64,000 nucleotides of DNA, taken from Schmidtea polychroa (taxonomy: Eukaryota). Position numbers and translations under genes: made by a program. Shown piece after piece: positions 20,252-44,902 of this stretch (positions are counted from its first letter, which is position 1; each line of letters begins with the position of its first letter). A model generated the notes under the pieces. It was not told the DNA's origin and searched no databases. It saw only the letters and a list, made by a program, of their open reading frames with translations. Location of the stretch: positions 139,500,001-139,564,000 of the forward strand of contig CM097885.1 in NCBI GenBank assembly GCA_044892525.1, read 5' to 3'.

Positions 20252-20292
20252 TCATTATGGTTTATTTACAATTGGTTTTAGTGACCCTTAAT

Positions 20293-21057
20293 TTAATGGT
20301 TCTGATTTGGGTTATTTTCGGCGATTCTCATCAAGGTGGATTCTGCTTTAATGACTCTGTGTCTTAACTCGGGCAGCATTTCCAACTGTCTGTTCTTTTC
20401 ACGGGCCTCCCTTTTCATGTGCCTTATCTCCTTTTTCAGTCTTCTAATTTCTTCCCGTTTTTTGTCGAGATTCCTTTTTAGTTCGATTTGTAGGAAATCT
20501 TGTTCATTTTCCTGCGAAAGGTTTCGTTGCTGTTGTTGTTGTTGTTGTTTTCTCTCGATCTCTTGGTATTTGCGAATCCATTTCTTCATTTCCTCACTTT
20601 CTCGTTGTTTTTCCTCCAATTGTCGATTTAATTTATTTATAGTTATTTGGTGTTCTTTCGCCTCTGTTTTCCAATAATCCTGGATCACTTCTTCTGCCTT
20701 GAAGCTTGCCCTCTCTTGCCATAGTTCCTCTGCAATCTTTTCCCAGTTTCTTCCTCGTGTTCGTTGTTCTTGCAACCATTCATTCTTCTCTTCAGCTTCT
20801 CTCTTTATTTCTCCTAACACTTCGCACTCCTTCTTTAGTATTTTAATCATTTTTCGGTCTTCTATATATTTGTTTACTAGTCTCTCGTTTTCGTCCTTCT
20901 CTTCTCGTAACTTGGCCTTTAACGTTTGTGTTTCTGTTGTTTCTGCCTCAATCTCTCCCTCTTCTACGTCGCTCGTAATTTCTATTATTTCCTCGATTTT
21001 CATATCTGTAATATGTACAGTTAATGGTGCGCTATAGTGCGACTTATACATATACAT
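20293..21057 (-). CDS. Accessory coiled-coil protein, 254 aa
   Basis: Intact ORF, E/K/R-rich heptads, same strand and codon style as the polyprotein. Confidence 0.75.
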   Translation of the reverse strand: MYMYKSHYSAPLTVHITDMKIEEIIEITSDVEEGEIEAETTETQTLKAKLREEKDENERLVNKYIEDRKMIKILKKECEVLGEIKREAEEKNEWLQEQRTRGRNWEKIAEELWQERASFKAEEVIQDYWKTEAKEHQITINKLNRQLEEKQRESEEMKKWIRKYQEIERKQQQQQQQRNLSQENEQDFLQIELKRNLDKKREEIRRLKKEIRHMKREAREKNRQLEMLPELRHRVIKAESTLMRIAENNPNQNH

Positions 21058-21170
21058 TTATATAAAATTTTACTAGTTCGGGTTACAGTCCCTTGAATAC
21101 TTTTACAATACTTTAATTTTTTTGTTTGGGATATACGTCCCGATTTTTGTTTTTATCTTTTTATTCACCC

Positions 21171-22226
21171 TTATACGAAGGTTTCCTCCTGTCCCACATA
21201 ACCTTCATCACTATCGACCGCTGGATGCAACTGTATCGCAATAGGGTCATAGGGTAGGTAATATTGGGGGATTTGAGCTCTCAATTCATTAACTTCGTCT
21301 CTTAGAGCTCGAGTGATATTCAGCTCTTCGTCGAGCAGATAAGTGAGATACCTTGTCTCTTCGTCTTTCGCCTCTACTTGTCTATCTAAGGCCTTGATTT
21401 TCTCGTCGCCCTTCCATTTTTCAATTTCTATTTCCAAGTTTTTGATATTTTCGGTATACATTTTCCTCTCGTTTTCTAATTTTCTGTTTTTTCCCGCCAG
21501 GACCATGTTTCTTTGTTCCAACGATCCTTGTAATCCATTAAGGTCTCTTTTCATCTCTTCGACCTGATTTACTAATTCCACAACCCGTCCTGCTTGCTGG
21601 GTTATCATCTCTTCCATTGCGGCATTCTCGTGCTCTCTTATGTCGCATTTTATTGCCAAATGTCGTTCAAACTCCATAGCCTTCATCTGCCATGTTTGGC
21701 TTCGGGCGGCGACCTTTTTCAACCGTTTCAGTTCTTCCTTTATTATTAAATTTTCCTCCCATTTACCCTGTTCGCTCTCATATCCGAGTCTCATGGGCAA
21801 TTCTTTCATCTCTTTTTTCATTTCATTGCTTTGTCTTTTCCATTTTCTCGCTTCTGCCACTAAGTGCATCATTTTCCTTCCTTCTATTTGCTTTTCCGCT
21901 TCGCGCTTGGTGTTCTCATCGGTAAGTCTCTTTCTCGCTTCCTGCACTAGCTGCTTTAAGTAGTGGCTGTGCGCTTCTTGGCGGGTATTTTCTAGTGACG
22001 CCCATTTTGATGCTCTTTTGCATGCTTCTGCTTCCGCTCTTAAGTTGTGTATTAACCATTGGTATTGACTATTCTCATCCTCTCTAGCTTCTTCGATGTG
22101 ATTTCGGGTGAGATTAGTTAGTTGGAACATTACTTTGTTCCATTTTTTGTTATGTTCTCGGGGAATTTGTGTCTTGTTGACATTGGTTGGGGCTATCGCA
22201 GTTTCGGTTAGTTTCTCTTGTGTCAT
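21171..22226 (-). CDS. Accessory coiled-coil protein, 351 aa
   Basis: Intact long ORF predicted to be helical/coiled-coil. Confidence 0.8.
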   Translation of the reverse strand: MTQEKLTETAIAPTNVNKTQIPREHNKKWNKVMFQLTNLTRNHIEEAREDENSQYQWLIHNLRAEAEACKRASKWASLENTRQEAHSHYLKQLVQEARKRLTDENTKREAEKQIEGRKMMHLVAEARKWKRQSNEMKKEMKELPMRLGYESEQGKWEENLIIKEELKRLKKVAARSQTWQMKAMEFERHLAIKCDIREHENAAMEEMITQQAGRVVELVNQVEEMKRDLNGLQGSLEQRNMVLAGKNRKLENERKMYTENIKNLEIEIEKWKGDEKIKALDRQVEAKDEETRYLTYLLDEELNITRALRDEVNELRAQIPQYYLPYDPIAIQLHPAVDSDEGYVGQEETFV

Positions 22227-22419
22227 CTCTAAATCATAGACATCGATTAAGCTTTTTATTGTGAAAAAGGAATTTATTCATTATCTACTGTTTCTTTGGA
22301 AATTTTCGCATCATTTTTGGGTTTTCGTATTTAGGGTTTTCATACTATTATTATATAATATTTTATTGGTTATATACACCGATATATACAGATTATTATA
22401 TACAACATTATTCGATTGG

Positions 22420-23808
22420 TTACTCCGTTCTACCCTTCTCCTCTTTCCTCACGGTCATCTTGATATACACCGTGTCATTTCTTGCCATATCTTCTACTTT
22501 TTGTTGTAGGATGAACGTAGGTGCTCCTGTTGCTGATCCTTCTTCTGCCGTAGGTCTCTGGTAACACATTTGGTTTCCAGTTGTCTTGAAGCTTTGTTCG
22601 TGGATGCTTCGGTCATTCATTAGTGCAATATCGATTTTTGCCTGGAACGGCCACTCTATTATTTCGTCGTATTCCCCTTTACATAACAGAAAGAAAATCG
22701 AAAAGTGCGTATCTAATCCGGTTCCGTCCCCGTTGGGATATATCTTCATTTTCATTTTGTACCCATTTTTCCAAGAATGGAATGCAGGACTTGTTATTCT
22801 TGTCTCTTCTCCGGTTTTTGCTTTTCGTATTCTTTCTTTTACTCCCGTTATTTTCCATATGTAGGGTGCTGTTGGGGTTATCTCATTTAGATTTATTTCC
22901 CGTATTTTCTGATGTAGCTCCTTGGCCTGATTATTACTGATTTCTATTCGGTTTATTTGCATCTTTATGTTTGCTCGGGCTTCTTCGAACGCTTCCCTTT
23001 CTTCTAGTAGTTCTTTGACTAACACTTTCAACGATGTTATCTCTATCTCCATTTGTTTTACTTTCTCTTCGCTTTCTTGTAACGCAGTCGACCACATTTC
23101 TGCGTGGGTTGAAGCATTTTCTACTAAATGATGTGGTAACTCACCTCGGTGTAGTAGTTTCTGACAACCCCATCTACCTAGTACACATGTCATTCTTTTC
23201 TTTTCGCATTCCCTTAGATGCTGTGCCACCTTCATTATTTCCCCTTGGTTACATCCGTTTGGGCATTCCCCACTGAACTCTGCACATACTCTCTCCTCTT
23301 GGACATTGTGATGTTTGAGGGTGAGATTTTTCCACGTATCTATTTCTCCACAGTGTTCACATCTTTCCAATCTCTCTTCACACTGCCTTTGATGCTCTTT
23401 TTCTTCGCTTGCTCGAATGGTTTTATGGCACCTTTCACACTGGCCAATTCTGTACATACATTCTCCCATATGTTGTACTACCTTCCATATTACTCCTTTC
23501 CATTCGCATGGGGCATTTTTACATCCCAGGTTGGTGTTTAACATGTCTTTCACTGCGGCTTTATCCTCGTTAGTGTCTTCTAAACTCGATATTAGTGTCT
23601 CTTTACACACCGGGCACCTCTGTGGTCTATTCTTTATTGCTTCACTGATACATTCTTTACATACTCTGCATCCACATTGAGTTTGGTGAGGTTCCTTTAA
23701 CAACTTTTCACATATTCCGCACATAACATGTTTGTGTATTCTGATCGTTGTAGATTTTCGGACTTGCTCGACAATCTCTCTGAACTCTTCTCTTTGTCGT
23801 TTATCCAT
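22420..23808 (-). CDS. TRAF: TNF receptor-associated factor homolog (RING, TRAF zinc fingers, coiled coil, MATH/TRAF-C), intronless
   Basis: RING CGIC...CGCRVCKEC...CPVC; zinc fingers CKNAPCEW...HMGEC; MATH YIWKI...SPAFHSWKNGYKMKMKIYPNGDGTGLDTHFSIFFLLCKGEYDEIIEWPF. Confidence 0.93.
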   Translation of the reverse strand: MDKRQREEFREIVEQVRKSTTIRIHKHVMCGICEKLLKEPHQTQCGCRVCKECISEAIKNRPQRCPVCKETLISSLEDTNEDKAAVKDMLNTNLGCKNAPCEWKGVIWKVVQHMGECMYRIGQCERCHKTIRASEEKEHQRQCEERLERCEHCGEIDTWKNLTLKHHNVQEERVCAEFSGECPNGCNQGEIMKVAQHLRECEKKRMTCVLGRWGCQKLLHRGELPHHLVENASTHAEMWSTALQESEEKVKQMEIEITSLKVLVKELLEEREAFEEARANIKMQINRIEISNNQAKELHQKIREINLNEITPTAPYIWKITGVKERIRKAKTGEETRITSPAFHSWKNGYKMKMKIYPNGDGTGLDTHFSIFFLLCKGEYDEIIEWPFQAKIDIALMNDRSIHEQSFKTTGNQMCYQRPTAEEGSATGAPTFILQQKVEDMARNDTVYIKMTVRKEEKGRTE

Positions 23809-23893
23809 TCTATAATTATATGTACAAATAGCTCTTATCGATACAGGTTCGATATTTTATTTACAATTATTTACATTTTAAGCTAGGTTTGGT

Positions 23894-24253
23894 TTAGGGT
23901 TCGGAAGAGTCGGCTTCGTGTCCGCTCTCCTCTCTATTCATTAACCATTCCGACCAGTCTTCTATTTCTGTCTGTTCTGCTTCCTCCATCATTCTGTTTA
24001 GTTCAATTTCCTGTCTACGGCTATATTGGGTTATCCTCTCTATCTCTCTTTGCATTTGTTCGATTTTCAACCTCTGGTCTTCAATTATCTTCAAATAACT
24101 AAATCCTCTATTCATACTCTCGATTAGGTTTCTGTGCATCGTCAATCCTTGTTCTTGCAAATTGGACACTAATTGTGCTAATACGGCACATTGTTGCTTC
24201 CATAATTCTTCAGTTACTGTATTGTGGTTCATTTCGTTACTTCCTTGATCCAT
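23894..24253 (-). CDS. Accessory small coiled-coil protein, 119 aa
   Basis: Intact ATG ORF between the polyprotein stop and TRAF, with an acidic C-terminus. Confidence 0.65.
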   Translation of the reverse strand: MDQGSNEMNHNTVTEELWKQQCAVLAQLVSNLQEQGLTMHRNLIESMNRGFSYLKIIEDQRLKIEQMQREIERITQYSRRQEIELNRMMEEAEQTEIEDWSEWLMNREESGHEADSSEP

Positions 24254-24412
24254 TCTTAATTATATACACTTTTCAACTCTTATTTAAAATTAATTTTATT
24301 TTATGGTTCCCGTTATTGTATAATATTAATACCGCGCTTATATAAAGATATCGTGCTGTTATATACATAAGATATACTTACTTTTTACAATTATATACAG
24401 TCATATTCCTTT

Positions 24413-25414
24413 CTATATACGTGAGTTTGGAGGGCGCTGAGCGTTCCAGGCCTCCACCCACTGTTCTTGTTTGATATCACTTGGTCGTTTCACTCGATGT
24501 TGGAAATTTCTGATTCGGGTCATCTCTAGTTCTCCGCGATGTCGTTTATCTTTAATTATTTTTATTGTTCCCCCTGTTATGATTAGGAAGGCCCCTGTTA
24601 TTATTATCCCACTGATCCACATCATCTGCTTCACGCTTATATTCTCTGGTTTCTCCTTGTTCGTTAATGTTGATATCGCTTCTGTACCTTTCTCGTTTCC
24701 TCTTTTGCCATTTCCTTTCATCATTTCCCGTATTCTTGCTATTTCCTCGTTCATACCCTCCTTTGCCATCTTTTGTATTTTTTCCATCTCTTCCTCCGAA
24801 ACATAGTTGTCCTGAGCTTCCTCACCGGTTTTCTTGTGCTTTCCGCCTTCGTCCTTTTCGTCGTTGTTTTTCCTTTTCTTCCCTCTTTTCCCCGGGTATC
24901 GTCGACATTCCCTTTTTGATTCGTTCCTCCAGATACAAACCGTGTATTCTTTCGGCGGCTGCTGCTGCGTCACATATTGATGGCATCTCTCACCTGGTCC
25001 TAATCTTGAAATACAGACTTTGTGCTCTCTTCTAGGTTGGAGCTGCGTTATTACTACTTCACCACCTTTTCCTAGGTGTACCTCTTTTCCTTTAACGTTC
25101 GTTATTCTCTTCCCGTCCCGATTTCGGTATGCTTCTTGTATTCTTACTTCTGTTATTGGTTCTGTGTCCTCATTTATCAGTACTAGTTTCTGATACGCTC
25201 TAGACATGCATCTTCCTAGTATGCACCTTTCCTTTAAGTCCCATTCTTCCTTTAAATCCCACTGCTGCTCTTGTGCTTGCTTTTTCTTTTCTTGTTTTAG
25301 TTCATCCTCTTTGCTATCTTGATTCTCCGCTTCTTTGGTTTCTTTTATCGTTCTCGTCCCTCCATGAGCTGTTACTAACTCTATCATGGTAAGCATAATT
25401 ATCATTAATATCAT
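24413..25414 (-). other. C-terminal polyprotein module: signal peptide, FN3-like ectodomain, TM, short tail
   Basis: Signal-like MILMIIMLTMIELVTA; VVITQLQPRREHKVCIS resembles FN3 strands E-F; TM MMWISGIIITGAFLIITGGTI. Confidence 0.55.
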
Positions 25415-28400
25415 ATTTGTCTCTATTTCTTTGTTAGTGAAAGGTAGGCATACCCTCTGTTTTCCATTATTCGGTTTTTCCTCCTCTTTGGTCTTGGTTC
25501 CCGGGCTGTTTCCCTCTCTTTTCGTATCCAAATCCTTGTTTTCCGGTTTATCCTCTTCCGGTTCTCTTTTCCCTTTATCCTCTTTTCGGCCTTTTCCGTC
25601 ATTGTCATCGTGTTTATCTCCCCCGCTGTCGTTTAAAATGTCGTCCCCGACATTTATATCGTTCAATAATCTGCGATATCCTGTTAGCACTCTGTTTCTT
25701 GCTAATTTTGCTTCGAATTCAAACTCTTTTCTACCCGTTGCAGCATGTCTCTTTCTATTCCATTCTTTAACTAACTCTCTCAATTGCATACGACGATGTT
25801 TCCCAATTCGTTGTTGCTCGTTCTGATTTTTCGTGAATTTTAGGTCTTCTCTATTTAATACTATTAAAATAATTTTAGGCGTCCCCCCCTTAGTTAGGGT
25901 ATTCTTTACCATCGCATTTTCTCCGTTTTCGTAGAATTCGTTTACATTTATCGCATATTTATTATTTTGTGGTACTCTCCAGGTTAATAATAATTTCATT
26001 GCTTCTAGATTTTTCCGTACCGTATTCCATTGAAACTGAGATGTGTTTTTGCACATATTTTCAACTTCTTCTTTTGTCGCATTTTTGAAAATAAATCTGA
26101 TCATTTCTAAGTTTGGCTGTATGGTTGCCCAGTCCAATGTGGAGTTCCCTTCGTTTGATTTTTCGTCTAGTCTCGATCCTGATTGATGTAGGATGTGGAG
26201 TGTTTTTGGGTGTATTTTCGTTATAGCTGCATACATCATGGCGGTTTCACCTTGTTCATTTTTCGTGTTGGTTTCCTCGCCCATCTCCCCAAGGATTCTC
26301 ATGATCGTTATTGCTCTATTCTCTTTTGCAGCTAGTATTGCTTGTTGTAGAGGTGTTCTGGAATCCTTTGTTGCCATCGTAAATGCTCGAGGCAAGAAGG
26401 TTTTGATTTTCCCGATATCTAAACCCGTGGTTTGATCTCTTGCGTATGTGTGTACGGCTTTTATTATTTTTGACAATATTATTTCGTCTGATAGCTCTAG
26501 CATTTCCTCGAAGAATACTTCTTTTGCTTTGCGTATTATTGCCTCTTGATCTAGACTCATTGGTTTTGTTTCGATGACGTGGTTTGTGACCGTTTGGTTC
26601 GTTGTTGACTTTGATTCCCTCGGTTTCTCATACCTTATTTTCGTTTTCTTTCCGTTTAGATTATTGATTCGTTCCTCTGCTGTGAGTATTTGGATAATAT
26701 CCAGGTAATTCTCGCGGATGTTATTCATTGTGTCCATCATATATAACACACTTACCGTTTCCCAATATTTATTTCGTACCTGAGTAATGAATTGAAATAT
26801 TGATCTTTCGAATGTGTCGATTCGCTTTTTTAATAACTGCTCCTCTTTATGATTTGTGAATTTTATCCCTCGTTCTAGTAATTGATTCGGAATTTCGAAT
26901 AAATGATGTCCTTTCATAGCTTCTCTCATCAGCGTGTTCTCTCCTCTCGTGAACGCTTCGTTTACGTTGATCATATAATCGTTTTGAATTGGATTTCTCC
27001 ATGTAATTAATATTCCGGTAATTGTCGTCAATTTTTCTTTGATCGCTGTTAACAATCCATCATACATGTTTCCGACTTCTCGATTGTCCTCATATGATAG
27101 TAGTTCCATCAATGACGTGAACGCCTCGGTACTTCTCCCTTCGATAGCATGATGTAGAGCGTTTTTCCGCTCGTGGTCTTGTGTAGTTATTTTCGATCCA
27201 GTATCAAGTAATGCGGTTATAATGTCTTTGGTTTTGCCTCTGTTTGCTGCTATCATTAATGGTGTGTAACCTTGGTTGTTTGTTTGTTCTGTTGATCGCT
27301 TGCAGTCGTGAAATGCTTCTATTGTTTCTAGTATTTGCTCGTTGTTACCTACTTTCATGAGTTTGTGTAATGGTGTGTCTCCGTAATGATCTGTTATTGT
27401 AAATAATATTGGCCATTGGCTTTTGACTACTCGCAATAATGGGTGTGTCCTTTCTCTATTTGCATAGTTCTCGATCATCGTCAATAATCCTCCTAATATT
27501 TCGAAATCTAATCGATCTTTTGCCCATCCAGGTATTTTAATTTTTACCTCTTTTACAATCTTTTCCGCTTCTGATGGTTGGATACCCAATCGTCCAGTGA
27601 TCGGTTCTGCGAGTTGTTGCATCATGTTCATTCTGTAGGTTTGCGAACGTGTGGTTAATGTACGGCCTTCTGGTTGACTAGTGGCTGTTTTTGGAATTGA
27701 TTTGCATCGTGCCACGTTTACGTATATTGGCCTGGTAAATGGGTTATTTACCAATTTCACTCTTACATTGGTTTCGCCTACGAATAAGATCTCATATGGT
27801 CCTTTTCCGTTGCGTTGTAACTTTTTTGTGGTTCCTGGAATTAATTCCGGGGTTTCTATCATTACCCAATCACCTGTTTGAAACGTATGTTGCTTCACGT
27901 TTTTCTTTCGATCGTGTAAATCTTTATAACTTTCCTGGTAGAACTTGATATTTAATCCCGCAGTTTCCCAAATTTCTTGCATTCTTTCCTTGAATTTCGT
28001 AACATAATCATCGATCTCCATATACTGCGATATCGGTGGTTGGTATTCCAGGTCCATTGGCATATTACACTCTCTTCCGTACATTAATTTGAATGGGCTC
28101 ATTTTCGTTGATGCGTGAATCGACATTCTGTATGCCATAAGACATAGGTTTATATATTCGTCCCAATCTCGTTGGTGACGGTCGACGTAGTTTGATAACA
28201 TTTGTATAAGTGTTCCATTAAATCTTTCCGTCATCCCATTGGTTTGAGGGTGGTATGGAGATGTTCTTAGTTTTGCTATTTTGAAGTAATTTGTTACTTC
28301 GCTCATTATCTCACTCATAAAATTAGTTCCCTGATCGGTTAATATCTGTTTTGGTGTTCCATATCGGCAACATATCTCTTCTACCAAAATTTTTGCGATT

Positions 28401-31400
28401 GTTTTAGCTTTTTGGTCTGGCATCGCGAATGCTTCTGGGAATTTCGTAAGAAAGTCTGTGATCACTAGAATGTAAACGTTTCCTTTATCTGACTCTGGTA
28501 GTGGACCAACTACGTCCATGGATATCATTGTCATTGGTTCTATTGGTACTGGCATTGGCGTTAAAGGTGCTTTCCATTTCGATCCCGTATTCTTCCTGGT
28601 TGCACAAGTTAGACAATTTTTTACCCATTCGGTTACATCTTCAGTTAACGTAGGCCAAAAATATTTCTGTTTCATTCTTGCTAACGTCTTTTTCGATGAC
28701 ATATGTCCTCCCAATCTCCCATCGTGATATTGCGTTAGTAACTCTTTTCGTCGGTTTTCCGGTATACACATTAATCGTTTTTCCCCATCCATTATCAGCA
28801 ACCAATCTTTCTCTATAATATATCGGTGTCGGTGTTTATCCATATGTTCTTTTAATTTTTGGTCTTTCGCATATACATCTGTCTTTCCGGTTTTTACATA
28901 ATCGATAATTTGTTTTAATTCCGCGTCCTCTTGTTGGTCCTTTCGCAATTGACAGAAATCCAAATCTTCCGCTACTATTAAGCATATGCGTTGCATTTCT
29001 GAATCCACCAAATCTGGGAAAATAAATCTTGACATACAATCGGCGTTGGCATTTGCTCTTCCCGCTTTGAATTTTATAAATGGGGAGTATTCTTGCAATT
29101 GCATGGCCCATCTCATCAGTCTACTGGACGCTTCTTTATGTTGCCCTAACCACACTAATGGTTGATGATCGGTGGTTATGCATATCTCATGTCCCCATAG
29201 TAAATATCGGAAGTGTTTGATAGCTTGTATTATAGCCAATGCTTCTCGTTCTGTTACTGAATAGTTCTTTTCGTGCTTTTTGAATGTTCGACTGTAATAC
29301 CCGATTACTCTCTCTTTTCCTTCATCGTCTAATTGTCCCAGAATCGCGCCTGCCGCGTACCCGCTTGCATCCGTTGCCAATAGAAATGGCTTCTTAAAAT
29401 CTGGGTGTACTAGGATAGGTGCTTCGATTAGTTTATCTCTCAGCGTTTCGAACGCCTGTTGTTGTTCTTTTTCCCAAATGAACGAAATATCCTTCTTTAC
29501 TTATTCCTGGATTGGTTTTGCAATTCCTGCATAATTTTTGATAAATTTGCGATAGTATCCGCATAATCCTAGAAATTCCTGAACTTGGGTGACAGTTTTC
29601 GGTGCTGGACATGTTTTTATTTTCTCAATGTTTCTTGGATCTGGCTCCTTTCCTTTAGCTGACACTATGTGTCCCAAAAACGTGACTTTTTCCTTTGCCC
29701 AATCGCATTTTGATGGTTTGAGTTTGAGTTTCCACTGTCTTAATCTAATAAATACGTTTCGGATATCTTCCAGATGTTGTTCAAATGTCGCTGAATAGAT
29801 TAGTAAATCATCAATATATACCATACATTGTTTGATTCCATGGGTGACAAAATTCATACACCGTTGAAATGATGCTGGTGCATTGGTCAGTCCGAATGGC
29901 ATTTTCCTGAATTGATATAGATCTCGTCCCAACGTGAAAGCTGTTTTCTCTTTGTCCTCATCTTTGACTTTAATCTGCCAGTATCCACTTTTTAGATCTA
30001 AAGAAGTAAAATATGCTGCCCCTTGCAACATCAATAACATCTCATTGATGTCCGGCAATGGATAGGTATCTCTCTTGGTTACTGCGTTTAACTTCCGATA
30101 ATCGATACAGAATCGTTGGGTGCCATCTTTCTTTTTTACCATGACCACTGGGAATTGCCAGGGTGAGCAACTTGGTTCGATTACTTTTGCGTCTAGTATC
30201 TTTTGTACTTCTGTTTCGGCTATTTCTTTCTGCATTTCTGCTAGCTTGTATGGTCTCAATGCAATTGGGGTTTCGTCTATGAGTGGTATTGCATGTAAGG
30301 TAACATCACATGTACCCAAGTCTAAATCTGAGATGGCGAATATATCTTTATATTCTACCAACAATCGGTGCAATTTTTTCTTTTCATCATTCGTCAACAA
30401 CATACTATCTATTGTCCATAATTCATCATCTTTGATCATCTCGTTGGTCACTTTCGGTAATTCTATGTCCATCATTGGGGTCAATCTTCCCAATTTTTCG
30501 TTCTCATAAATGATTTTGTCTTCCTCTTCGAAATTCGTGATGTTGAGCGGTATCACTCCTTCTTGGTTTATTGTGATTATTTCCCTTGCGAGTGGTAACT
30601 CTCGTCGCTTTTCAAATGACTTGCTTGGTTCAAAGATAACTTCTCCTTCCATACCCGTATCCACTTTTATCTGACAAATCATCTGCGATTTTGCTGGTAC
30701 TATTATTTTTTCTGGACATCTGATGACTGCATTCATTTTGCATATTCTACCGGTTTTGTCTTTTAAACACATGGTTGTTAAGTCAATTACGACTTCTTTT
30801 AACAATTCTGGCATCAAATCCGTTCCGATTATGCATGGTACGCTAAGGTTTGGTATTACTGCCAAATACGTTTCGATTTCGTTGTCCTGGTATCTCAAAG
30901 TAGTCCACCATCTTCCGACCACGTCCACTGTTTCTTTACTACATGCTATGATGTGAATTGTTGTTGATTCGATATCTTTCCAGTGTTTACTGGGGATTTG
31001 ATTAATCGCTATCGCTGATACATTAGCTCCGGTGTCTATCATAGCATTGGTTTCTTTACCATTGATTTGAATCATAACTGTTACTGCTGGACCTCCAGGT
31101 AGACTCATCGCTGCTATTGTTCTTACGTCATCTGCTTGATCTACACTTTTGGTACGTCGTGTTGGCATATAATGCATACCGGGTTGACTCGGTAATTGCG
31201 GATACATATTTTGTGTCATGGTCAAAGCTGCTTGTGGTCCCACGATATCCGGTGGTATGTAGCTTCCATTGGCGATCCAGGTATTTGTCTTTTCCTTTTC
31301 CCAATATGGTGCCGTTTCCATTGGTTTTTCGTTTGGGTTTCTGTTTGGATATAAACATTTGTCGTTCCCGTTAGCATCGTCGTCACTATCGCTGTTAGAT

Positions 31401-34400
31401 GATTGGCTTCTAAATCTGTCCAAAAATTTTTGCTTATTCTTTTTCAATTGTCGTCTTGTTGCTTCGTCGTACATTACTTTCCGGAATCGTCTGCCTACTT
31501 CCTCGTCGGTTCCTTTAATCTTTGTTAGTATTTTAATCAATCGCTTTATCCGATGAATGTCTTTTGAGTGACCATGTAATACCATGGTTTTAGCTAAAAA
31601 TGGTAGAAAGCCTACTATCATTTTCCAATTTACTTTCTTTTCTCGCTTGTATATATCAAAACACGCTAACATTTGTGTTAGTATTACCCTGACTATCTGA
31701 ATTATGAGTATGATCCCTAATATCCCGGCCATCATTTGTCCAAAAACTAAGAATCTTCCCCACATTGCTTTCATCATGTTTGACGTGGCTTGTTGAAAGT
31801 GGTCTGGCGATAGTAGCAGTTCGTAATTCGGGCCTGATTGATAATTTGTTCCCCCCGTTATTGTAACCATATTTGACAAAATGGATTCTCGTCTGGCTGG
31901 GAAGAGTACGTTAAGTCGTGCTGTTTCTAGATCTTCTGGGGAATACATACCACCGTTTGACACGTCTATAGGTTTGAAATCTAGCTCTGTGGCGAGTTCT
32001 ATTAATCCAAATTTCTTGGGCTCCTCGGATATGGTTTTTCCCGGTAACATCATCCATTTTCCATCGGGCCTTTCATACAAAGGTCCGTATGCATTAGAAC
32101 AGTTAAAGAGATTTGGGTAGAAACCCACTGGATTCATAATTCTAGTGACTGGTTGGACGAATCGATTTTGTCCTTTATAACGGATTTCTAATTCATTTGC
32201 ACATCTCTTTTCGGGTAGTATAGATTTTTCTGGCATTCGTGCATACGTCTTGGTACACTGGTATGTGTACATTACTTCTCCTACCATTCTACCAAAATGT
32301 CCATCCGGTAATGGGAGTGATGGCATCGTGTTATCTGGGTGCGTTATCGCAATAGCTAGCTTTGTTTTCAATATTTCTTTATTCAATGAACAATCGTTTT
32401 GTATCAGATCGTAATATACTTTTTGCAAGGTCGTTTGTCCGCGATGAAATAGAAAATCCATTTTATTATTTGCATATAAGTATAGTTTTACGTCCTCCGT
32501 TGCTATCTTTCCCACTGCTCTATCGATTATTTGTCTCGACATATAGATGCCTGCGTAATTGGTTTTATATACTATACTGTCACATTTGGTGGTTTCTTTC
32601 TCTTTGATAAATCTCATACCTAGATCTGGATCGTCTGTGATTAATGCTGTTGGTGTCTTCTGCGTTGAAAGTCTCTTTTCTCTGGGAGATGGTGGCATTG
32701 GTTTTCCATTTCGCATTCTCACTCTGTCGTTTCCATCCTCGTCGTTCTCGTTCTCATATATTTCTCCTTTTACTTCATTGAACAAAGCACTTTTTAACAG
32801 TTGGAGTCGGCATTTTTGGGTATTAGCTTCATAGATTATAGTTGATACTCCTGTCCTACATACGTTTTCTGTAGCTCTACACGCTGGGTTGGTCTTCATT
32901 TGGTAATTATTTGCGTCAAATTGCGCTTCGTATTCCTTTAGTTCAACCGTATAGGACTCAATCACTACTACCCCCGATATTACTTCGCCTCGGATCGTAT
33001 ACGTACCTCCGTTACATGACCCATCTGATGATTTTACTTTTCCGGATACGTAAACGCTTTCGGTTTTAATCATTCCAGTTTGTCCGTGAATCGTCACTCC
33101 GTTATGCATTTTTAGCGCTCCGGTTCTAAATAGCTATTTACAGTCCTCTCGTTGTATTGATACGATTTCTTTATCCAGACCAGGTAGTATAAGAGTCGAA
33201 TACGAATATTGTCCACAGTAATATGCGAGTACCTTTTTTGATACTACGCATTCCCTTGCTTGCGTTCTGATGAAATCTGATTCTTGATATACATGGTAAG
33301 TAACTTTTGTTCTTACTATGTCTAATTTGTTGGGTGATGCTTGTCTGCATTCTTCTATGTCTCTCAATGAGTATTTATCTCTCATTATCATATTATCACA
33401 ATCGTAGATGGTAAAACCCGTTGCTCCACTGGTGCACAACATCCATATCATCATAGTCATCATTAACGAATTTATTGATGCTTTTCTGCTTGCGGGATCT
33501 TTCATCGGTAGTTCCCATTCTAGTTCATTTAACAGTTTTTTCAATCTAACTTGCATCGACCTTTCTTGCTCATTTTTTCGTGGCGCTTGTATCAGTCTTT
33601 TCCATCCTCCGGCACGAATAATATGTGATTCAATAGTATTCTCTATGATTGAAACGGTCATTTCCACATGATTTGCAAACTGTTTATTTGGTATTTTCCT
33701 CGCGGCTAGTCCCATCAAATTATACATCAAATACGTGATTACCACTAGGTGATGTTCGTCGTCATTTGCGTTCGTCGTGAGCTGTTCAATCACTCTCTTT
33801 GTTTCATCCCAGTCCGTTTTGGTGGTTTTCGTTTTCTCTTTGATTAACTTTGGGATTATCCCCGAAACGATGTGCCATAATTGTCTAGCTTCCGTACTGG
33901 CTACTTTCCGTTGCCACAAACGTCTAAGTTGTGGGTTTGTTATTATTAACATATCTTTTATCAATTCTCGTATCCATTTTTCTCCTCTTTCGATCGTTGG
34001 TTGGGCTTCCTTTAGATCCCATACTATTTTATCCAATTTTTCTAATCGAACTTGCCCTTGTTCTTGCTTTAATTGTTCTTTGGTTTTGAACTCAGACTTT
34101 TCTCCTTGTTTCTTAGGTCTTCCTTTTGCCCGTTTTTCCATCATCGTTCCGGCTTCTCTGGTATTTTCGTAATTCGGATTTCTTTCGTTATCCGTTCTGG
34201 GTAATGAGCTATCGTTATTTCTTAGCCACTCATTCCATTCGTCTATTATTTTATCGGTTTGACCTTCTGGTGTTACTTTCGTTGGTTCTCTTTGCTTCTG
34301 GAATTGTTCATCCGTTTCGGTTTCCGTAGTATTGTCGATGATTTCTTTGATGTTCAGTTTCGTTGGTTGTTGATAACTCGTTGATGGCTGGTTATTAGTC

Positions 34401-37400
34401 CACATTTCGGCTCCTGTCGGCCATCTCACTAATAGCGGTGATCTTTCTCCTGGTTCATCGTCACTATCTTCCAGGATTATCTCTTCAACTTCTTCAGTTT
34501 CATTAGATTTACTTGGTGCTTTGTTCGGACTTGGAGTACTCAAACTGCCTTTTGTTGGTTTAGTAATTTTACTTTTCCTTTTTAACGGTTTCCCCAACGT
34601 TTCGGCCATTGTTAATACATTTGTCTCTTCCAATCTCATGGGTGTTATTCCGACGTCTGCATTATCGTCTAGTGATTTTCCGAATAGTTGCAGATGGAAT
34701 GGAGTTTCATATGCTAATTTCTTTTTTAATTCTCTAATTTTTGTTGTTGGATGCACCTCTAGTTCTTCGATGCTCTTGTCCGGGTACTTGATTCGGATGT
34801 GATACCTCTCTTGGGTGTCTTGTGCCCATTCCTGATTTCTCCATTTTCGAATAATTTGTTCTAGCTGTTCTGGATACCATTCATTATATTGCCGGTATTC
34901 CTCTATTGCCTTTGCCATTCCTCTCAGATTGTGGATGTTCTCTGATGTCTTTAAGATGATGTTAGCCAACGCTACTACTTGGCGTTTTTGATTTTTCGCT
35001 CCCATTGCTAAGATATCGCCTAATTGTTTATATCTTTCTGTCTCTTCTCGTTCTCTTGCTTCCGTCGCTTCCTCGCCGTCCATATCAGCATATTCACGTT
35101 CCTTTTTCCTCATTGCATGAATATGTCTCGCTTCATTTTCGCTTTCTGATGTGACATCCGTCTCGCTTTCGTCATCTGATGTCTGTCCCCTTGCTTCCTC
35201 TTCATATTCTGGAGGTTCCTCTTCTTCTTCCTCCGTTTCACTTTCTGTCTCACCAATGTCTGTTTCTACGAAGATTCCTTTCCGGATTTCCCATTCCTTA
35301 TTTTCAGCATTCCACACTCTTTCCCATGGGGTTCGTCTGCAGGATCTGGTGCTTAATTTCGTGATTTTTCCTTGTAGTTCTTTTTCTTTTAACCATTGTT
35401 GGTGGATTTCAATTATTTCTGTAGATTTCTGATATAACGTTTTCATCCGGTCTCGTATTTCTTTTTGATAGATTACATCTCTTGTTCGAAATTCATCCAT
35501 TGGTACTATCCTGATGATCTGATGATTGTCCCACATACCCAATTCGCTTAACGAGGTGTCGTCTTCTGCTCGTAATATTATTTTATCGTACATCATGACT
35601 ACATCATCCACCATACCATCACTACTTTCGCTACGTACCTTTTCCGTTATCTCTTGGTTTATCTTTGATACCAAGTCATCCACTGTACTCTGATTGCTCA
35701 TTTTTATTCGTCGTTTTTCTTCGTTCGGTAACCATATGGTTATTTCCAACCTCTGTGGCTGGGTTTCTTTCAACCTTCCATATTTGTGGATCAAATTTAT
35801 GGTTCTCCAATCACTCATCCGGAGCATTTCTGTATCTCGCAATCGGCTCATTAGTTCGTACATGGCTGGGGCTCGTCTGGTGATGAGTAGATCCCAGTTG
35901 TCTTCCACTTGTTCTTGAATTTGTTTGATCAGCTTATCCAGGTTTCGTCTCAGAGTACATTGTTTTATTTGTTCTAATTTCAATTTGATATTAAAATCAT
36001 ATTCTGCCTTGGCATCTTTAGCCCAATCGTAAAGGTTGGCTGGTTGTTTTTCTTTATGCAACTTTAGTATTTGCGTTTCTCCTGGCCATATTAGTGCATC
36101 TACTAAGTGCATATCTGGTTTAATCTGTTCTCCTTGGTATTGATACAGATATTCTTTCTTTCTCGAACTTCCCAAATGTTCTCGTATCCAATCGAAAAGT
36201 TCGTCGGTGACTGTATTTTTTATCCACATTCTTTCAAGTCCTCTACTCGTTCCGATTTTTATTACATACCGCGTGGTATCGGCCTGCTTCATTTTTCCCA
36301 TATACTTTTTTATAATTGATTTTTCTTCGTTTGGTATTAGATCTTTCTCGTTTCTTTCCAATTTCATCACTTTTTGCACGAATCGCCTGAATGGTATTAC
36401 GTCGATGAACTCTTGGTTCCTCACTACTACTGGGAGTATTTCGGCTACCTGTTTTATCGCTTCCTCCCTTGCTTTTCTCAACTTTATTTCGATATCTTCG
36501 TCTTCACTTTCACTGGTTATCTCGCTTTCGCTTTCTTCTTCTTTGATTTCCCCTTTTGGAGGTTCGCTTATTTTATTCGGCTGTAGTATTTCTCCACCCA
36601 AACTACTTACATAGTCTTCTTCTTCGTCTGACGATGCTACCTCTTTTGTCCTTTTCATCATATTGATTTGCAAATTTCTCATCCTTGGTACTCTCTTTAG
36701 TTTCTTTCTTTCGAATATCGTTGTTTCTTCTGATTCTAATTCTTGTAGCATTTGGTGGTTTAGTTGACTGGTTTGTTCCTTGCTCTTGTTATTTTCATCT
36801 TCTGTCTCGGCTTTCGCTTTATTATGTTCTTTTTCGATTTTATCTTTTATCTTTTTCCAGAATATTTTCTGAATTCTCTGGTTTCCTTTTAAAATCGTGG
36901 TTGAATTCTCTGTTTTCATTTCCGTTGTTGTTTCTGTTACCTTTTCTGGTTCAGTCATGGGTACTACCCTTGGGTTTTTCCCGTAATTGTAGCAATACTG
37001 GCTTTTCATGTCTTTTACTAACTTCATCATATTAATTCGCAATGGTTGTTCTTGTCGTTGTTGGTTGCGTTCTTGTTTTATCCTCTCTTCCTCGGCCTGT
37101 AGTCTTTGCCATTCTTGTACATGTTGATGCACTTCATAATTGTTGAGATTTTCGGTACTCCTCATCATACGTATATTCTGGGTTTGTTGTGGTGCTGATT
37201 CCGGTCTCGGTCTCATCATTTGTTGCATCATCTGTTTCATCTGCGAGATTTCCTGCATAACGTTCATTTGTTTTCCTTCGCTAGGGTTACTTTGTCGTTG
37301 CGGATTCGCCATATAATTATTATTTCGCTGTGGTGGTCGTTGTTGTTGGCCCCTTTCTCGGCAATCTCTGGAGATGTGACCTGGCTGACCACAGTTAAAA

Positions 37401-38266
37401 CAACCTCTCAATTGGCATACATTTTCGGTATGTCCACGCCGTCCGCAACGATTACAATTTGAATTTCTATAGCAATCTCTGTCCCAGTGTCCTGGTTTAC
37501 CGCATGTTCGGCACTGCTTGTTATCGTTCATATTTCGTCGATTATTGAAATTGTTCTCATTATTCGGGTTGTTACGATTACCATTATTCCCATTTGATCG
37601 TCCTTGTGGTGGTTTGAAAATTTGGTGCGCTCCTGGTATAAATTGATTCATTTTCGGTTCTTGATTGTTGTTATCTCCGTTATCCGCTTTCGCTATTGCT
37701 GTCATTATCCTTCCCTCCTCTTGCATAATATTCATTTGAGCTGGAAGGTGGAGCTCGCATCTTGTAGCCCAATCTATGGCTTCCTCTAATGTTTTGCACA
37801 TTTGACAACCTACTGAGGCTCTTACTTCTTCTCGGCGTAATCCCTCTATGAAATAACCGATCAGATTTTCTTCGGGTAATTTTCCATTCATTGCTTTCTT
37901 CGCTAATCTCCGCAATTCACTGGCATATAATGTTATCGATTCGTTTGCTCTTTGTTTCCTATTTGCTAGTTCGCCCAACGCCTGGTTGATTGGCTTACTG
38001 GCTCCGAAGGTTTTCTTCAGGAATGTTTTGATATCTTCCCACTTTTCTAATTTCGTATCTCTCTCTTTAGTTTCTAAATATACTTCTAATGCGCTATCGC
38101 ACAAAAACAACGGCATCCTTTTACTAATTGCTTCGGGTGTCCATCCACATACAGTGATATAAACTTCAAAATTAGTTATGAACGTTGCTAACTTGTTTGC
38201 ATTTCCGTTGAACGGTTCTCCTCTGAACTTTTCTTTATACTCGTCGGTTTTTACGACATTCGTCAT
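24413..38266 (-). CDS. gag-pol: Single Gag-accessory-Env-Pol-accessory polyprotein frame (4618 codons) with two internal stops (33134-33136 TAG, 29501-29503 TAA)
   Basis: ORFs 33134-38266, 29501-33109 and 24413-29380 share one frame. The gaps translate without further stops: EDCK*LFRTGALKMHNG and KPIQE*VKKDISFIWEKEQQQAFETLRDKL...PFLLATDAS. Confidence 0.92.
26090..26370 (-). other. Ankyrin repeat block 2
   Basis: SRTPLQQAI, NEQGETAMMYAA, NEGNSTLDWA. Confidence 0.8.
27100..27400 (-). other. Ankyrin repeat block 1
   Basis: DHYGDTPLH, NNQGYTPLMIAA, DHERKNALHHA. Confidence 0.88.
27700..28760 (-). other. pol: Integrase (H2C2 zinc finger, DDE core, GPY module)
   Basis: H-X5-H...CLTC; ISMDVVGPLP, LTDQGTNF, NGMTERFN; GPYEI. 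Confidence 0.97.
29030..29500 (-). other. pol: RT connection and RNase H
   Basis: ATDASGYAAGAIL, NYSVTEREALAII, TDHQPL, NANADCMSR. Confidence 0.95.
29504..30330 (-). other. pol: Reverse transcriptase
   Basis: RFCIDYRKLN, LDLKSGYWQ, MPFGLTNAPASFQR, and catalytic YIDD at 29807-29818. Confidence 0.98.
30740..31100 (-). other. pol: Retropepsin aspartic protease
   Basis: AMIDTGANVSAI (DTG at 31028-31036) and CIIGTDLM. Confidence 0.95.
31570..33463 (-). other. env: Envelope-like glycoprotein resembling chuvirus (Jingchuvirales) G, with own signal peptide and TM
   Basis: Signal MMTMMIWMLCTSGATG; motifs YCGQYS, GSCNGG, LYANNK, DCSLNK, GEVMYTYQC, CANEL, FVQPVTRI, GGMYS, FPARRESIL; TM FGQMMAGILGIILIIQIV. 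Recognised by motif recall, not by search. Confidence 0.75.
33590..34040 (-). other. Divergent Bcl-2-like helical domain
   Basis: Ends in BH2-like HIIRAGGWKRL, preceded by a BH1-position hydrophobic helix HLVVITYLMYNL. The NWGR motif is absent. Confidence 0.55.
34605..34810 (-). other. Ubiquitin-like domain 3
   Basis: YHIRIKYPDKSIEELEVHPTTKIRELKKKL...LQLFGKSLDD matches the beta-grasp pattern. Confidence 0.65.
35500..35755 (-). other. Ubiquitin-like domain 2
   Basis: LEITIWLPNEEKRRIKMSNQSTVDDLVSKI...LSELGMWDNHQIIRIV. Confidence 0.55.
36057..36271 (-). other. Ubiquitin/SUMO-like domain 1
   Basis: YVIKIGT...LFDWIREHLG...YQYQGEQIKPD...LIWPGETQIL. Confidence 0.45.
37361..37513 (-). other. gag: Three CCHC zinc knuckles (nucleocapsid)
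   Basis: CRTCGKPGHWDRDC, CNRCGRRGHTENVC, CFNCGQPGHISRDC. Confidence 0.97.
37760..38266 (-). other. gag: Gag capsid region
   Basis: Retrotransposon-gag pattern RKQRANESITLYASELRRLA...YFIEGL...KTLEEAI upstream of the knuckles. Confidence 0.85.
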
Positions 38267-38925
38267 GATTGGTGTTCTAGATTCGTCTGTTTCTTTTAAA
38301 TTGTCTAACGATGTGACTAAACTTTGGGCTGATAATTCCTCGGTTGACGTTGCTAAACTATTAGTGATGTCGGACAGACTTTCTCTGCTTCGAGATCGAC
38401 TAGGGGTGTATCCGAGATTTTCTTGGTCAAATATAGGTACTTGATTGGTTCTTCTTGATCCTTGCGATATTCCTCTTTGCTGTTTAATAGATCGTCCTCT
38501 TTTGAGTTGTTGTAATTCGTCTCCTGAAAATAATACGTCTCCTGGCTTACTTGAAGATCTAAGATTGGGTTTATCCGTGATTCCTTTCTTACGCTTCTTG
38601 GTAATTAGCGGCTATTGAATTGGACGAGTTCGGTTCTGATTGTGTTTCCTTCGATAAATATTCTGTATGGATCTGCTACTGTGATTCTGAGGAGATTCAC
38701 TAGTCCTTGACAGATGGCTGCTAATATTATGAGGTTGAATATATCGATGATTCGTTCGAAGTTGGAGATATCGCTATCTGTATCTTCTTCCGTTCTGGAG
38801 TCTTCCGGTTGCTGTGTCTCTCGGTGCGGGTTCTGAATGAATTTATTCTTGGTCGATTGTCGATTTCTTCGAATTCCTTTTGTGCAGGTTCTGGATTGTC
38901 TTGGTTGACTGGATTGGTTTGATAT

Positions 38926-38945: not shown

Positions 38946-39630
38946 CGTGTTGCATTTGCTTACACGACTTCATCATTCTTTCAACAACGTTCGAACACAG
39001 ACACCTTTTAGGTTCTGTTTATGCTTCCCCTATTTTTTATGCAATTACTTCCGCGGGTTATAATCTCCCATCAGCCCGAATTTTTCGTCGATTTTAAATT
39101 ATCTATATGGGGTAGTAACAATTATCTATCAAGTCGTAATAATTATCTATTCGTTATCAATTATAGTAAAAATAGGTCGTTGTCGGTCTCTGCTTATTAC
39201 CCCCCTTCGTTTTCCTATTCCTTTTGCGCTGTTGTCGCTATTTTACTTTTCATATTTACTATTATTACGCTCGGTTCTACTCTGGAACCAATAAAATGCA
39301 TTTTCCCGGTTTAACCAAAAAAAATATTCCGTAGAGTTTCTCTACCTCACTGGGATCCCTTTAATTAGTTGGTTACTTTCCTCTTTACTCATTATCATCG
39401 TTTCGCCTATTCTTTATTTTCCATTATCTCTTTAATTCGTTTCCTTCTTCCCTTTCCTTTTTCATTATAATCTTATTATCTTTTCCACGAGCTCGTTTAT
39501 TTCCTCTCTAAACTCAAATTTCCGTAATTACATTCAATTTGTTTCTAGCTAGCTTTAATATTCCCTTTCTCTATTAATTCAGATATTAGCTCATTGTAGC
39601 TTAACTGCTATCTCTCGCTTTTCTAGGCCT

Positions 39631-40030
39631 TTACGACTGGCTGGCACTATTCAACAGCTCAATCTTCCTCCTTCTGATCGGTTGGACTATTCGACAACTC
39701 GATCTTACGACTGGCTGGCACTATTCAACAGCTCAATCTTCCTCCTTCTGATCGGTTGGACTATTCGACAACTCGATCTTACGACTGGCTGGCACTATTC
39801 AACAGCTCAATCTTCTTCCTTCTGATCGGTTGGACTATTCAACAACTCGATCTTACGACTGGCTGGCACTATTCAACAGCTCAATCTTCCTCCTTCTGAT
39901 CGGTTGGACTATTCAACAACTCGATCTTACGACTGGCTGGCACTATTCAACAGCTCAATCTTCCTCCTTCTGATCGGTTGGACTATTCAACAACTCGATC
40001 TTACGACTGGCTGGCACTATTCAACAGCTC
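39631..40030 (-). repeat. 74-bp x 5.4 tandem array of alternating 34/40-nt hairpin subunits in the leader
   Basis: Units start at 39631, 39705, 39779, 39853, 39927 and 40001. There are no unique spacers, so it is not CRISPR. Confidence 0.95.
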
Positions 40031-40181
40031 AGCTTTAACATTCTTTACTATGCATGCTTCTACTTCTCTTTTCTTCTTTTACTCAAGATTACCATTTTCT
40101 CTGTCTATTTTTAATTTGTTGACTTAATCTTTACCGCTCGGAAGTGTGTCCCCTTTCCCCCCTTGCTCAAAACGCACGACG

Positions 40182-40594: not shown

Positions 40595-41131
40595 TTATTC
40601 ACCATAATAAACCATATGAGTTTCTTTTATTTCATGCCTACATATCGTACATCGTTTTAAATCGTTCACACATTCTTCGCAGTGACTGAGGTGTCCACAC
40701 GGCAAAAACAGTACGCGAATAGGACGAAGTTTACAAGCACGACAAGTTCGTAGTAGAGTCAGTTTTTCTTGTATTTTCCGCTCGATTGTATCTGATATGG
40801 TATTTAGTGGATCTTTTATACGTTGATAATCAAGATTTAATGCTGGGTGGTTCAATCTCTCTTGATACCATTGATACACGGTTTCCGGGTTTACCTTCCC
40901 CTCTGGGTGACTTAGTCCTGTGGCTAATAACATGTCGTTGGGGACGGCTGGTGTTTGCCCGATTGCTTGAAGTAGTATGATGTTAATTCTTTCTCTTTTT
41001 TGTGTCAGCGTTTTAAGGGAGTCATTCTCGATGTTTATGAAGTTGATTAGTTGTTGTATCTGGTCCACGAATTCCGTCATGTCTATTAAAAAAAATGTTT
41101 CAGTAATATATGACTTCGTTTCGTCAAACAT
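40595..41131 (-). CDS. IAP-type C3HC4 RING protein (no BIR), first ORF after the PBS
   Basis: CRACKLRPIRVLFLPCGHLSHCEECVNDLKRCTICRHEI at the extreme C-terminus, as in IAP E3 ligases. Confidence 0.85.
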   Translation of the reverse strand: MFDETKSYITETFFLIDMTEFVDQIQQLINFINIENDSLKTLTQKRERINIILLQAIGQTPAVPNDMLLATGLSHPEGKVNPETVYQWYQERLNHPALNLDYQRIKDPLNTISDTIERKIQEKLTLLRTCRACKLRPIRVLFLPCGHLSHCEECVNDLKRCTICRHEIKETHMVYYGE

Positions 41132-41381
41132 TCTCTTTTCTAACTCGTTATCATTATTTTACTTTTATCTTATTTCTCCATCATTAAATTTGCTTTATTT
41201 ATATTTTTAATTTTATTATTTTCTATTCGTGATTTATAATAAGATTCGATAAGTATTAGTCAATTTGCACTCGCTAACCCATTGAAATCACTGATCCCCG
41301 GTGAGTTCACTCTATTCGACAGAAATTCACTCAATAACATCCTTATCCAGTTTACACTAGTCAATGGAAATTTCAATCTAA

Positions 41382-41399
41382 ATCCCGGCTGAGCCCCCA
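41382..41399 (-). promoter_or_regulatory. Primer-binding site (tRNA-Pro-like) of element A
   Basis: TGGGGGCTCAGCCGGGAT has 16/18 identity to the canonical tRNA-Pro PBS. A 7-nt spacer TAATTTT separates it from the LTR. Confidence 0.85.
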
Positions 41400-41833
41400 A
41401 AAATTATGTTGCGGGTACACTACTCGGATGACCCCTTTCTAGTGCAACTTTAGTCTAGAGGATGAATGCCACCTCGATTTCGCCCATCATTTATTTGGTC
41501 ATCGCCGAGCGGGACCCGTACATAACTTACACTCCAACATAGCACCCGTGAATTGCTTCACGTTGGAACTGTGCTATGCCGGCGAGACGCCAGTAAGCAG
41601 GTGAGCCAGCTCCTTCGGACTACTCCTTACTGAGGCCTCGACTTCCCAACCCTGACTGCCGATAGAAGGACTTACGTCTACTCATTCCGTCGCCCCATCG
41701 CAATATTTCTAGCTGAGTTTACCAACTGACTAATGCTCCTCATAATTTTATGACTCTCAATACCATTTACCAATTTCAACTCAACTGTCTTAAGATGAAC
41801 ACAAAGAAAAAAAACGTATGCAGACAAAAATGG

Positions 41834-41839
41834 TTTATT
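41834..41839 (-). terminator. AATAAA poly(A) signal copy in the 5' LTR
   Basis: Same site as 15594-15599. Confidence 0.5.
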
Positions 41840-41973
41840 ATTAAGATTATCACACAAATATATCTAACACCTATACAATAAAGTTCACGACAACGGGAAA
41901 AGAGACAAGGTAAAATGTTATCAGACAATGTTCAGGTCAATTCAGAGAACGAAGACTTTTTACGGGGAAGTTC

Positions 41974-42723: not shown

Positions 42724-42733
42724 TTTTGAGTGA

Positions 42734-44870: not shown

Positions 44871-44902
<32 letters not shown>

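Follow-up and report, generated by a model that had tools for sequence, protein, structure and literature searches.

We analysed a window of 64,000 nucleotides from Schmidtea polychroa (assembly GCA_044892525.1, contig CM097885.1, positions 139,500,001 to 139,564,000 of the forward strand; coordinates below count from its first letter), whose minus strand carries a giant gypsy retroelement of the Burro type with gag-env-pol gene order (LTR type; 15167-45597, 30.43 kb). In our view, the proteins of this element are probably made as one chain that threads the membrane four times, with a cytosolic Pol hanging from the tail of Env, and that is processed by signal peptidase together with the encoded retropepsin. 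The single frame, the order of its domains, the conserved hydrophobic segments and, as a model, the fold of Env are what the analysis shows.

The frame runs on the minus strand, like all features of the element given below, from gag to a second membrane protein (38266 to 24413, 4617 codons) and is interrupted in the window copy by in-frame stops at 33136-33134 and 29503-29501, both of which were translated as X. Because both positions hold sense codons in all ten sampled sister copies, the two stops are private to the window copy, which is broken and cannot make the full-length chain. Four of these ten sister copies are unbroken and six carry a frameshift elsewhere. A search with the last 345 residues of the chain gave 661 candidates, of which the 117 best-scoring were evaluated: 59 sit in a clean frame of 4732 codons and four more in frames of 4705-4794 codons (hand counts), a share of open frames that this selection biases upward. 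One open chain is the norm for the family, and the single chain of about 4600 residues proposed in the initial annotation of this DNA is borne out by the frame in the window and by the longer clean frame of the sister copies.

Along the chain, Pfam profiles give the order Retrotrans_gag, zf-CCHC, Monjiviricetes_fusion, RVP, RVT_1, RNase H, integrase and ankyrin. A Gag with a capsid-type domain and CCHC knuckles, predicted to be cytosolic (37307-38266; PF03732, E 1.3e-9; PF00098, E 2.2e-8), is followed by the Env ectodomain (31736-33415; PF24664), which contains the first stop, the retropepsin (30803-31078; PF00077, E 8.6e-10), the reverse transcriptase with RNase H (29087-30139; PF00078 and PF17917), which contains the second stop, the integrase (27680-28765, approximate end; PF17921 and PF00665) and ankyrin repeats that would again be cytosolic (26093-27343; PF12796, E 1.2e-16). 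The order first read from the sequence, namely Gag/Ubl/Bcl-2, Env, protease, reverse transcriptase, RNase H, integrase, ankyrin and a final ectodomain, is confirmed as to the order, the exception being the fibronectin type III (FN3) label of the ectodomain, which is unproven in this copy. For Ubl, the general Pfam scan gave no match in the window copy, and sister proteins match ubiquitin families. As a separate observation, P0001-P0003, P0044, P0045, P0047 and P0056 each contain two to four retropepsin-like domains, one of which follows the integrase in several of them.

The four best Kyte-Doolittle 11-mers of the chain lie at aa 2182 (nt 31723), 4285 (25414), 4553 (24610) and 1601 (33466), where the initial annotation had already placed four hydrophobic segments, and the same four are the only ones to pass a Hessa-type scan of the window chain. 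On this rough scale, whose cut-off of 2.2 was set after the segment scores were known, all four lie between -0.4 and 0.9 (values 0.9, -0.4, 0.2 and -0.2), and the best-scoring 19-mer in the soluble Pol part of the chain has 5.2. Taken in the order of the chain, these segments are an internal signal 1 (aa 1598-1617; 33416-33475) with a predicted signal peptidase cut three residues before the motif YDC, a transmembrane segment TM1 as the Env anchor (aa 2178-2198; 31673-31735), an internal signal 2 (aa 4281-4300; 25367-25426), and TM2 (aa 4548-4568; 24563-24625), after which come basic residues and a predicted cytosolic tail of about 49 aa plus the stop (24413-24562, from the frame translation).

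The layout signal-Env-TM-Pol-signal-ectodomain-TM recurs in all 11 polyproteins that extend past the integrase, down to about 27% Env identity, and signal 2 follows the integrase in each of them (the window, P0001-P0005, P0044, P0057, P0193, P0194 and L022; P0001-P0003 are related, so that the independent count is nearer nine than 11). These relatives comprise five long ones at 32-40% Env identity, others down to 27% and a second family in the same genome; among loci of the older family, long related frames were found only at L021/L022, L024/L025 and L035/L036, and eight sampled loci were too decayed. Exactly four segments are present in 8/11 polyproteins, with L022 counted within its available stretch, and the additional pair of segments that P0194 has between Env and protease leaves the side of Pol unchanged. 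In all 11, a cut site with small residues at -3 and -1 can be read by eye three residues ahead of YDC. Furthermore, position 3 of the Monjiviricetes_fusion profile aligns to signal 1, and the conserved Cys of YDC is preceded by 20-34 residues in 68 of 92 homologues of stand-alone size (those 600-740 residues long among the 150 matches listed). Since signal 1 is hence positionally homologous to the N-terminal signals of stand-alone gB-type glycoproteins, we regard it as a genuine signal.

By profile, cysteines and modelled fold, Env is assigned to the class III (gB-type, Monjiviricetes) fusion proteins, and its fusion activity is predicted. Fourteen of its cysteines are kept in 83-92 of the 92 homologues, the AF2 model of the ectodomain (pLDDT 82.9, a monomer model) matches herpesvirus gB in Foldseek with E 9e-14, and all 34 matches of the Env profile to the PDB are gB, at weak E values of 0.005-0.15. 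The 17 embedded Envs form a single clade with support of 0.999 (69-sequence tree, midpoint root). A furin-type site was considered as a conserved feature and rejected, as it occurs in the window Env alone (1/11).

On which side of the membrane Pol would lie is indicated by the Env tail. Motifs of the P[TS]AP, YPxL and [LMI]YP types bind TSG101, ALIX or AP-2 in the cytosol. In the tails of the stand-alone homologues, P[TS]AP occurs in 18/92 (0.8 expected from shuffles), YPxL in 25/92 (1.2 expected) and [LMI]YP in 44/92 (2.4 expected), and PPxY is weakly enriched (7/92 vs 2.2 expected). In the window chain, a late-domain-like YPxL motif (aa 2354; 31193-31207) lies ahead of the protease, within the tail of Env, and a script found [LMIV]YP in 7/11 Env-protease linkers (0.83 expected), a count that rises to 9/11 once P0002 and P0003, whose linkers it had clipped, are included. 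Because the late-domain-like motifs of the stand-alone tails are also kept between Env and protease, the chain after TM1, and hence Pol, is very probably cytosolic. A limited literature search on late motifs in chuvirus-type glycoprotein tails found no paper.

The second ectodomain of the window copy (24626-25366; about 247 aa, 6 Cys) has counterparts of 215-390 residues with 4-12 Cys across the 11 polyproteins, which are hardly alignable across families. Pooled over these polyproteins, 54/214 Asn of the second ectodomain lie in N-glycosylation sequons vs 191/1662 in the cytosolic parts (p 2e-7, and p 2e-4 without the related P0001 and P0003), an enrichment that supports a luminal position of the second ectodomain. 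It is FN3-like in several relatives: an FN3-type signature L-x-P-x-T-x-Y, a pattern written after inspection of the sequences, is found in 5/9 families and 0 times in 12,145 control residues, and the Atlas lead for the second ectodomain of L022 is to FN3 proteins (0.87). The window copy lacks the signature, and neither Pfam fn3, Foldseek, Atlas nor a six-unit FN3-like profile made from relatives gave an FN3 match there; its single-sequence model is poor (pLDDT 50.6). The FN3-like character that the initial annotation gave this domain is therefore unproven in this copy. No PDB sequence match was found for the L022 second ectodomain and no short homologue for that of P0004. Regarding its role, the second ectodomain may be an attachment protein or an immune or signalling decoy, both of which are candidates. 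Independently of this, the frame shifts at aa 4125-4146 (about 25890-25830) in 3/10 sampled copies, and open frames of 483-514 codons recur among the C-terminal matches alongside these shifts; the site may be a hot spot that removes the second membrane protein, or else an assembly error.

Several observations weigh against the proposed topology. The Hessa-type scale fails on the TM in 17/92 and on the signal in 37/92 stand-alone homologues, and it calls two C-terminal segments in 15/92. In the window, signal 1 is a short segment of no more than moderate hydrophobicity. An additional hydrophobic segment immediately precedes signal 1 in P0193 and P0058, P0194 has one further weak segment, L021 has one within the core of its Bcl-2 domain, and P0057 has a weak TM2 of atypical form. 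The P0193 linker has no late-type motif and that of P0004 has PPxY only. Sequons were expected to concentrate in the luminal segments, which fails in the window copy (Env 1/32 Asn and second ectodomain 2/13, vs 18/221 in the cytosolic parts); Env sequons are likewise not enriched when pooled over the 11 polyproteins (20/273 Asn), and in the stand-alone homologues tail (46/339) and ectodomain (315/2292) do not differ. The initially proposed topology with processing by signal peptidase and retropepsin is well supported by the comparison with relatives; as a test of Env topology, the sequons failed. In addition, a Gag:Env:Pol ratio of 1:1:1 is awkward for a capsid, and a search for a frameshift site gave 16 slippery heptamers, all with short -1 frames and none of them clear.

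Under the topology favoured here, the genomic RNA of unbroken copies would be translated into a single polypeptide about 4600 residues long. Translation of Gag and the cargo would take place in the cytosol, signal 1 would open translocation of the gB-type fusogen and TM1 would halt it; protease, reverse transcriptase, RNase H, integrase and ankyrin repeats would then be synthesised as an Env tail on the cytosolic side, until signal 2 opens translocation of the second ectodomain and TM2 halts it. Cleavage by signal peptidase after both signals would yield three membrane-bound pieces, namely (i) Gag-cargo-Bcl-2 anchored by the remnant of signal 1, (ii) Env-Pol-ANK anchored at both ends and (iii) a type I membrane protein of small size. 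Release of the cytosolic domains by the retropepsin would follow, Pol would travel into the particle on the tail of Env instead of being fused to Gag, and the YPxL-type motif of the tail would recruit ESCRT or sorting adaptors. Insertion, the two cleavages, the function of the motif and the formation of particles are steps that we infer; tethering of Gag and Pol until they are cleaved would follow from the topology. Insertion at the endoplasmic reticulum (ER) would be necessary, and budding may take place at the ER, the plasma membrane or the endosome. The initially proposed coupling of assembly to the ER is one possibility; a plasma-membrane or endosomal site of budding would suit the late-domain-like motifs just as well.

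A different sequence of events, which we consider unlikely, is that the retropepsin frees the N-terminal part in the cytosol first, or that the signal remnants are quickly removed, so that Gag is soluble and tethering is irrelevant to assembly. The alphavirus capsid protease frees the N-terminal part of its polyprotein in the cytosol, and here the short hydrophobic core of signal 1 and the roughly 1250 residues of cargo between Gag and its anchor would suit such a release. A candidate protease motif also occurs six times from Gag to signal 1, four times in the Pol part and nowhere in the luminal parts; it was chosen post hoc, however, and with a chance of about 0.14 for 10/10 cytosolic positions the distribution is not significant. 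The protease is encoded downstream of Env and retropepsins must dimerise to act, so that cleavage in cis could not precede the use of signal 1, and an early release of Gag would alter the timing and not the topology.

It is also conceivable, though quite improbable, that the single frame reflects genome packing, with Env and the second protein made from spliced or internally started messages in which their signals are N-terminal, and with a Gag-Pol message that skips env. Retroviruses generally make Env from a spliced message, and the available part of PMC7828637 describes this for the Env of foamy viruses. Both window signals contain a Met, so that separate starts are possible, the five open reading frames (ORFs) downstream of the main frame require subgenomic messages of some kind, and separate messages would resolve the problem of the Gag:Env:Pol ratio. 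They would not, however, require the frame to be open across gag-env, env-pol and pol-signal 2, as it is at 27-40% Env identity; three of nine proteins have no Met within 60 residues upstream of signal 2; and with no stop after TM1 an Env-only product would still continue into Pol. In a simple scan for splice acceptors no site stood out ahead of either signal, and some accessory ORFs ranked no better in it. Contigs of three runs guessed to be RNA showed no skipping joint among the matches listed, which is uninformative on splicing. One contig of run X2 (kind unknown) has a CT..AC-ended joint at 38647-38700 that resembles a 52-nt minus-strand intron and may represent the copying of a spliced leader.

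The amphipathic, proline-kinked stretch after TM1 (aa 2212-2232; 31571-31633) is conserved and is the fourth-best 15-mer of the window chain, and its equivalents exceed the cut-off in up to 15/92 stand-alone homologues, but a reading in which it spans the membrane as well and the four-segment count is wrong can practically be set aside, as the stretch has a soluble-like score (3.2-4.3, like the soluble controls), two charges, a proline and a high moment (1.1-1.4) in 7/7, is followed by cytosolic-type motifs, and would, if spanning, place reverse transcriptase and integrase in the lumen. With a helix break in the AF2 model at this point, it probably lies on the cytosolic face.

Upstream of signal 1, the core of a Bcl-2-like domain was matched at 33602-33817 (PF00452, E 0.061), with a BH2-like GGW 46 residues before the signal. 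This domain gave no PDB match; in the sister family L021 PF00452 reaches E 0.011, and all 29 PDB matches are Bcl-2, at weak E values of 0.12-0.36. GGW stands 26 residues ahead of signal 1 in L022, about 30 in P0045 and 62 in P0004, and the motif occurs in 3/9 scanned proteins plus P0045, which makes it a feature of some families. Cellular Bcl-2 proteins carry a tail anchor about 20-25 residues after the BH2-type motif at their C-terminus, and the remnant of signal 1 could, after cleavage, serve as a tail anchor of the Bcl-2-like domain. The Bcl-2 identity is weak, yet it agrees with the published Burro annotation (PMC6431247).

Further cargo lies outside the main frame. Five accessory ORFs follow downstream (19592-24259, from the ORF list and Pfam), including a full TRAF-like protein (23856-22420), and an ORF with a RING domain (C3HC4_3) lies upstream (40595-41158; PF13920, E 1.1e-11). 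The last accessory ORF (20251-19592, 219 aa) looks like a small signal-plus-TM protein and has no Pfam match. The motif TGTAHATA occurs 25 times in the window vs 12.9 expected, a count reached by 0/100 shuffles, and 12 copies lie on the sense strand in 19530-24399, chiefly in the spacers of the five accessory ORFs; in form it is similar to a Pumilio element or a UGUA/poly(A) signal.

The element as a whole is bounded by a 5' LTR (41407-45597) and a 3' LTR (15167-19359) of 4.19 kb each, which are 99.43% identical over 4197 nt, have TG...CA termini and are flanked by a 4-bp target duplication. With a 2.4-kb probe, 646 candidate copies were found, and those scored, 40 in number, show 97-100% identity; in this genome the family is a young one of high copy number. 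Each LTR contains an ORF without a Pfam match (262 aa at 41974-42762, shorter in the 3' LTR at 15737-16336), the leader contains a 74-bp tandem array (39557-40105), and a primer site that we take to resemble a proline-tRNA site (41380-41400) starts about 7 nt past the LTR. No purine-rich tract was found before the 3' LTR. Elsewhere in the window, a decayed piece of the gag region from an older family related to this one lies at 600-2000 (76% to the window element), and frames at 52547-53176 and 63528-63998 resemble pieces of Tc1/IS630-type transposases (by eye). Among the relatives, the gag-env-pol polyprotein P0005 is named in NCBI as a hypothetical protein of a Flavobacteriaceae metagenome-assembled genome and probably stems from a eukaryotic contig in a bacterial bin.

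The order of protease, reverse transcriptase, RNase H and integrase inside the LTRs (Pfam) is that of Ty3/gypsy (Metaviridae). The planarian Burro/GYPSM1 elements reportedly go back to Jurka 2007 and Grohme 2018, as cited in review text. They are described, in the available part of PMC6431247, as gypsy-like LTR retrotransposons of giant size, in which BCL2 is named and env lies in frame between BCL2 and protease. The element shares with this description an overall size of more than 30 kb, LTRs of several kb, a single ORF of some 4600-5100 aa that reaches from gag to beyond the integrase (in the family; the window copy has its two stops), a Gag with CCHC knuckles, the order BCL2-like domain, in-frame env (PF24664) and protease (RVP), the first of these being weakly matched, and apoptosis- and ubiquitin-related cargo in the form of ankyrin repeats, TRAF/MATH and RING, all matched by Pfam. 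A BIR domain, though part of the Burro cargo set, had no Pfam match in the window element, and TRAF is here a downstream accessory ORF, unlike in the Burro description. That part of PMC6431247 gives no membrane topology, second signal, C-terminal membrane protein or tail motifs.

Errantiviruses with GAG-ENV-POL order and an HSV/gB-type Env are reported from Nematoda, Bryozoa and Platyhelminthes in the portions of PMC13524379 at hand, with Schmidtea elements of 14.8 kb in its supplement; they share the gene order, the gB-type Env flanked by signal/TM and TM, and many near-identical copies. The available main text makes no mention of a polyprotein, a single ORF, anything fused, splicing, a late domain, fibronectin or Burro. 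Atlas virus and other belpaoviruses, as far as the excerpt of PMC9094657 goes, are LTR elements that likewise have a single chain, Gag-Pol-Env in order, with TM helices inside it and cleavage sites for a pair of glycoproteins; their Env is C-terminal and of class II and their Pol is fused to Gag, whereas in the window element Pol lies between two luminal excursions. Anakin Pao elements and chuvirus-type glycoproteins (PF24664) share the glycoprotein family, a signal before YDC, the TM and an amphipathic stretch after it, but in the sections of PMC7642597 consulted their Env is not between gag and pol, and the embedded Envs are a clade of their own. Foamy viruses share an Env leader peptide, that is a membrane-retained signal with a cytosolic N-terminal domain, and a Pol that is not a Gag-Pol fusion, and differ in separate spliced messages, furin cleavage and the packaging of Pol through RNA (same excerpt of PMC7828637).

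Alphavirus structural and flavivirus polyproteins use alternating internal signals and stop-transfer anchors, are processed by signal peptidase and a viral protease, and have a fixed capsid-to-glycoprotein ratio. The likeness to them drawn in the initial annotation holds as an analogy of processing and does not extend to kinship, since the window element has reverse transcriptase, integrase, LTRs and a class III instead of a class II fusogen. Burro, the gag-env-pol order and the in-frame env are already published (PMC6431247, PMC13524379). Neither a second signal nor a membrane protein at the C-terminus, a Pol carried by the tail of Env or motifs on that tail were found described in the literature searched, a scope without Sacco et al. 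2022, Grohme 2018, Jurka 2007, the figures of PMC13524379 and most supplements, and with the papers cited represented in part.

Overall, the gag-env-pol order was previously noted as an oddity, and the conserved topology would explain how such a chain can work and yields exact predicted N-termini. It implies a third route for Pol into the particle, beside Gag-Pol fusion and RNA-mediated packaging, and indicates a second, fast-evolving surface protein as well as budding or sorting motifs on the Env tail. One could speculate, tentatively, that these elements are an old enveloped retroelement lineage with togavirus-like assembly, in which a 1:1:1:1 ratio is set for Gag, the fusogen, Pol and a variable glycoprotein that binds receptors or acts as an immune decoy, Pol is packaged as the Env tail, this tail instead of Gag bears the late domain, and the Env signal doubles as the tail anchor of a viral Bcl-2. 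The abundance of late-domain motifs in the tails of stand-alone relatives would then imply that chuvirus-type glycoproteins are themselves able to drive ESCRT budding. As the family is young and abundant in the genome, one would expect to detect its products in the host, and the two-glycoprotein design would speak for the view that Burro elements move between cells.

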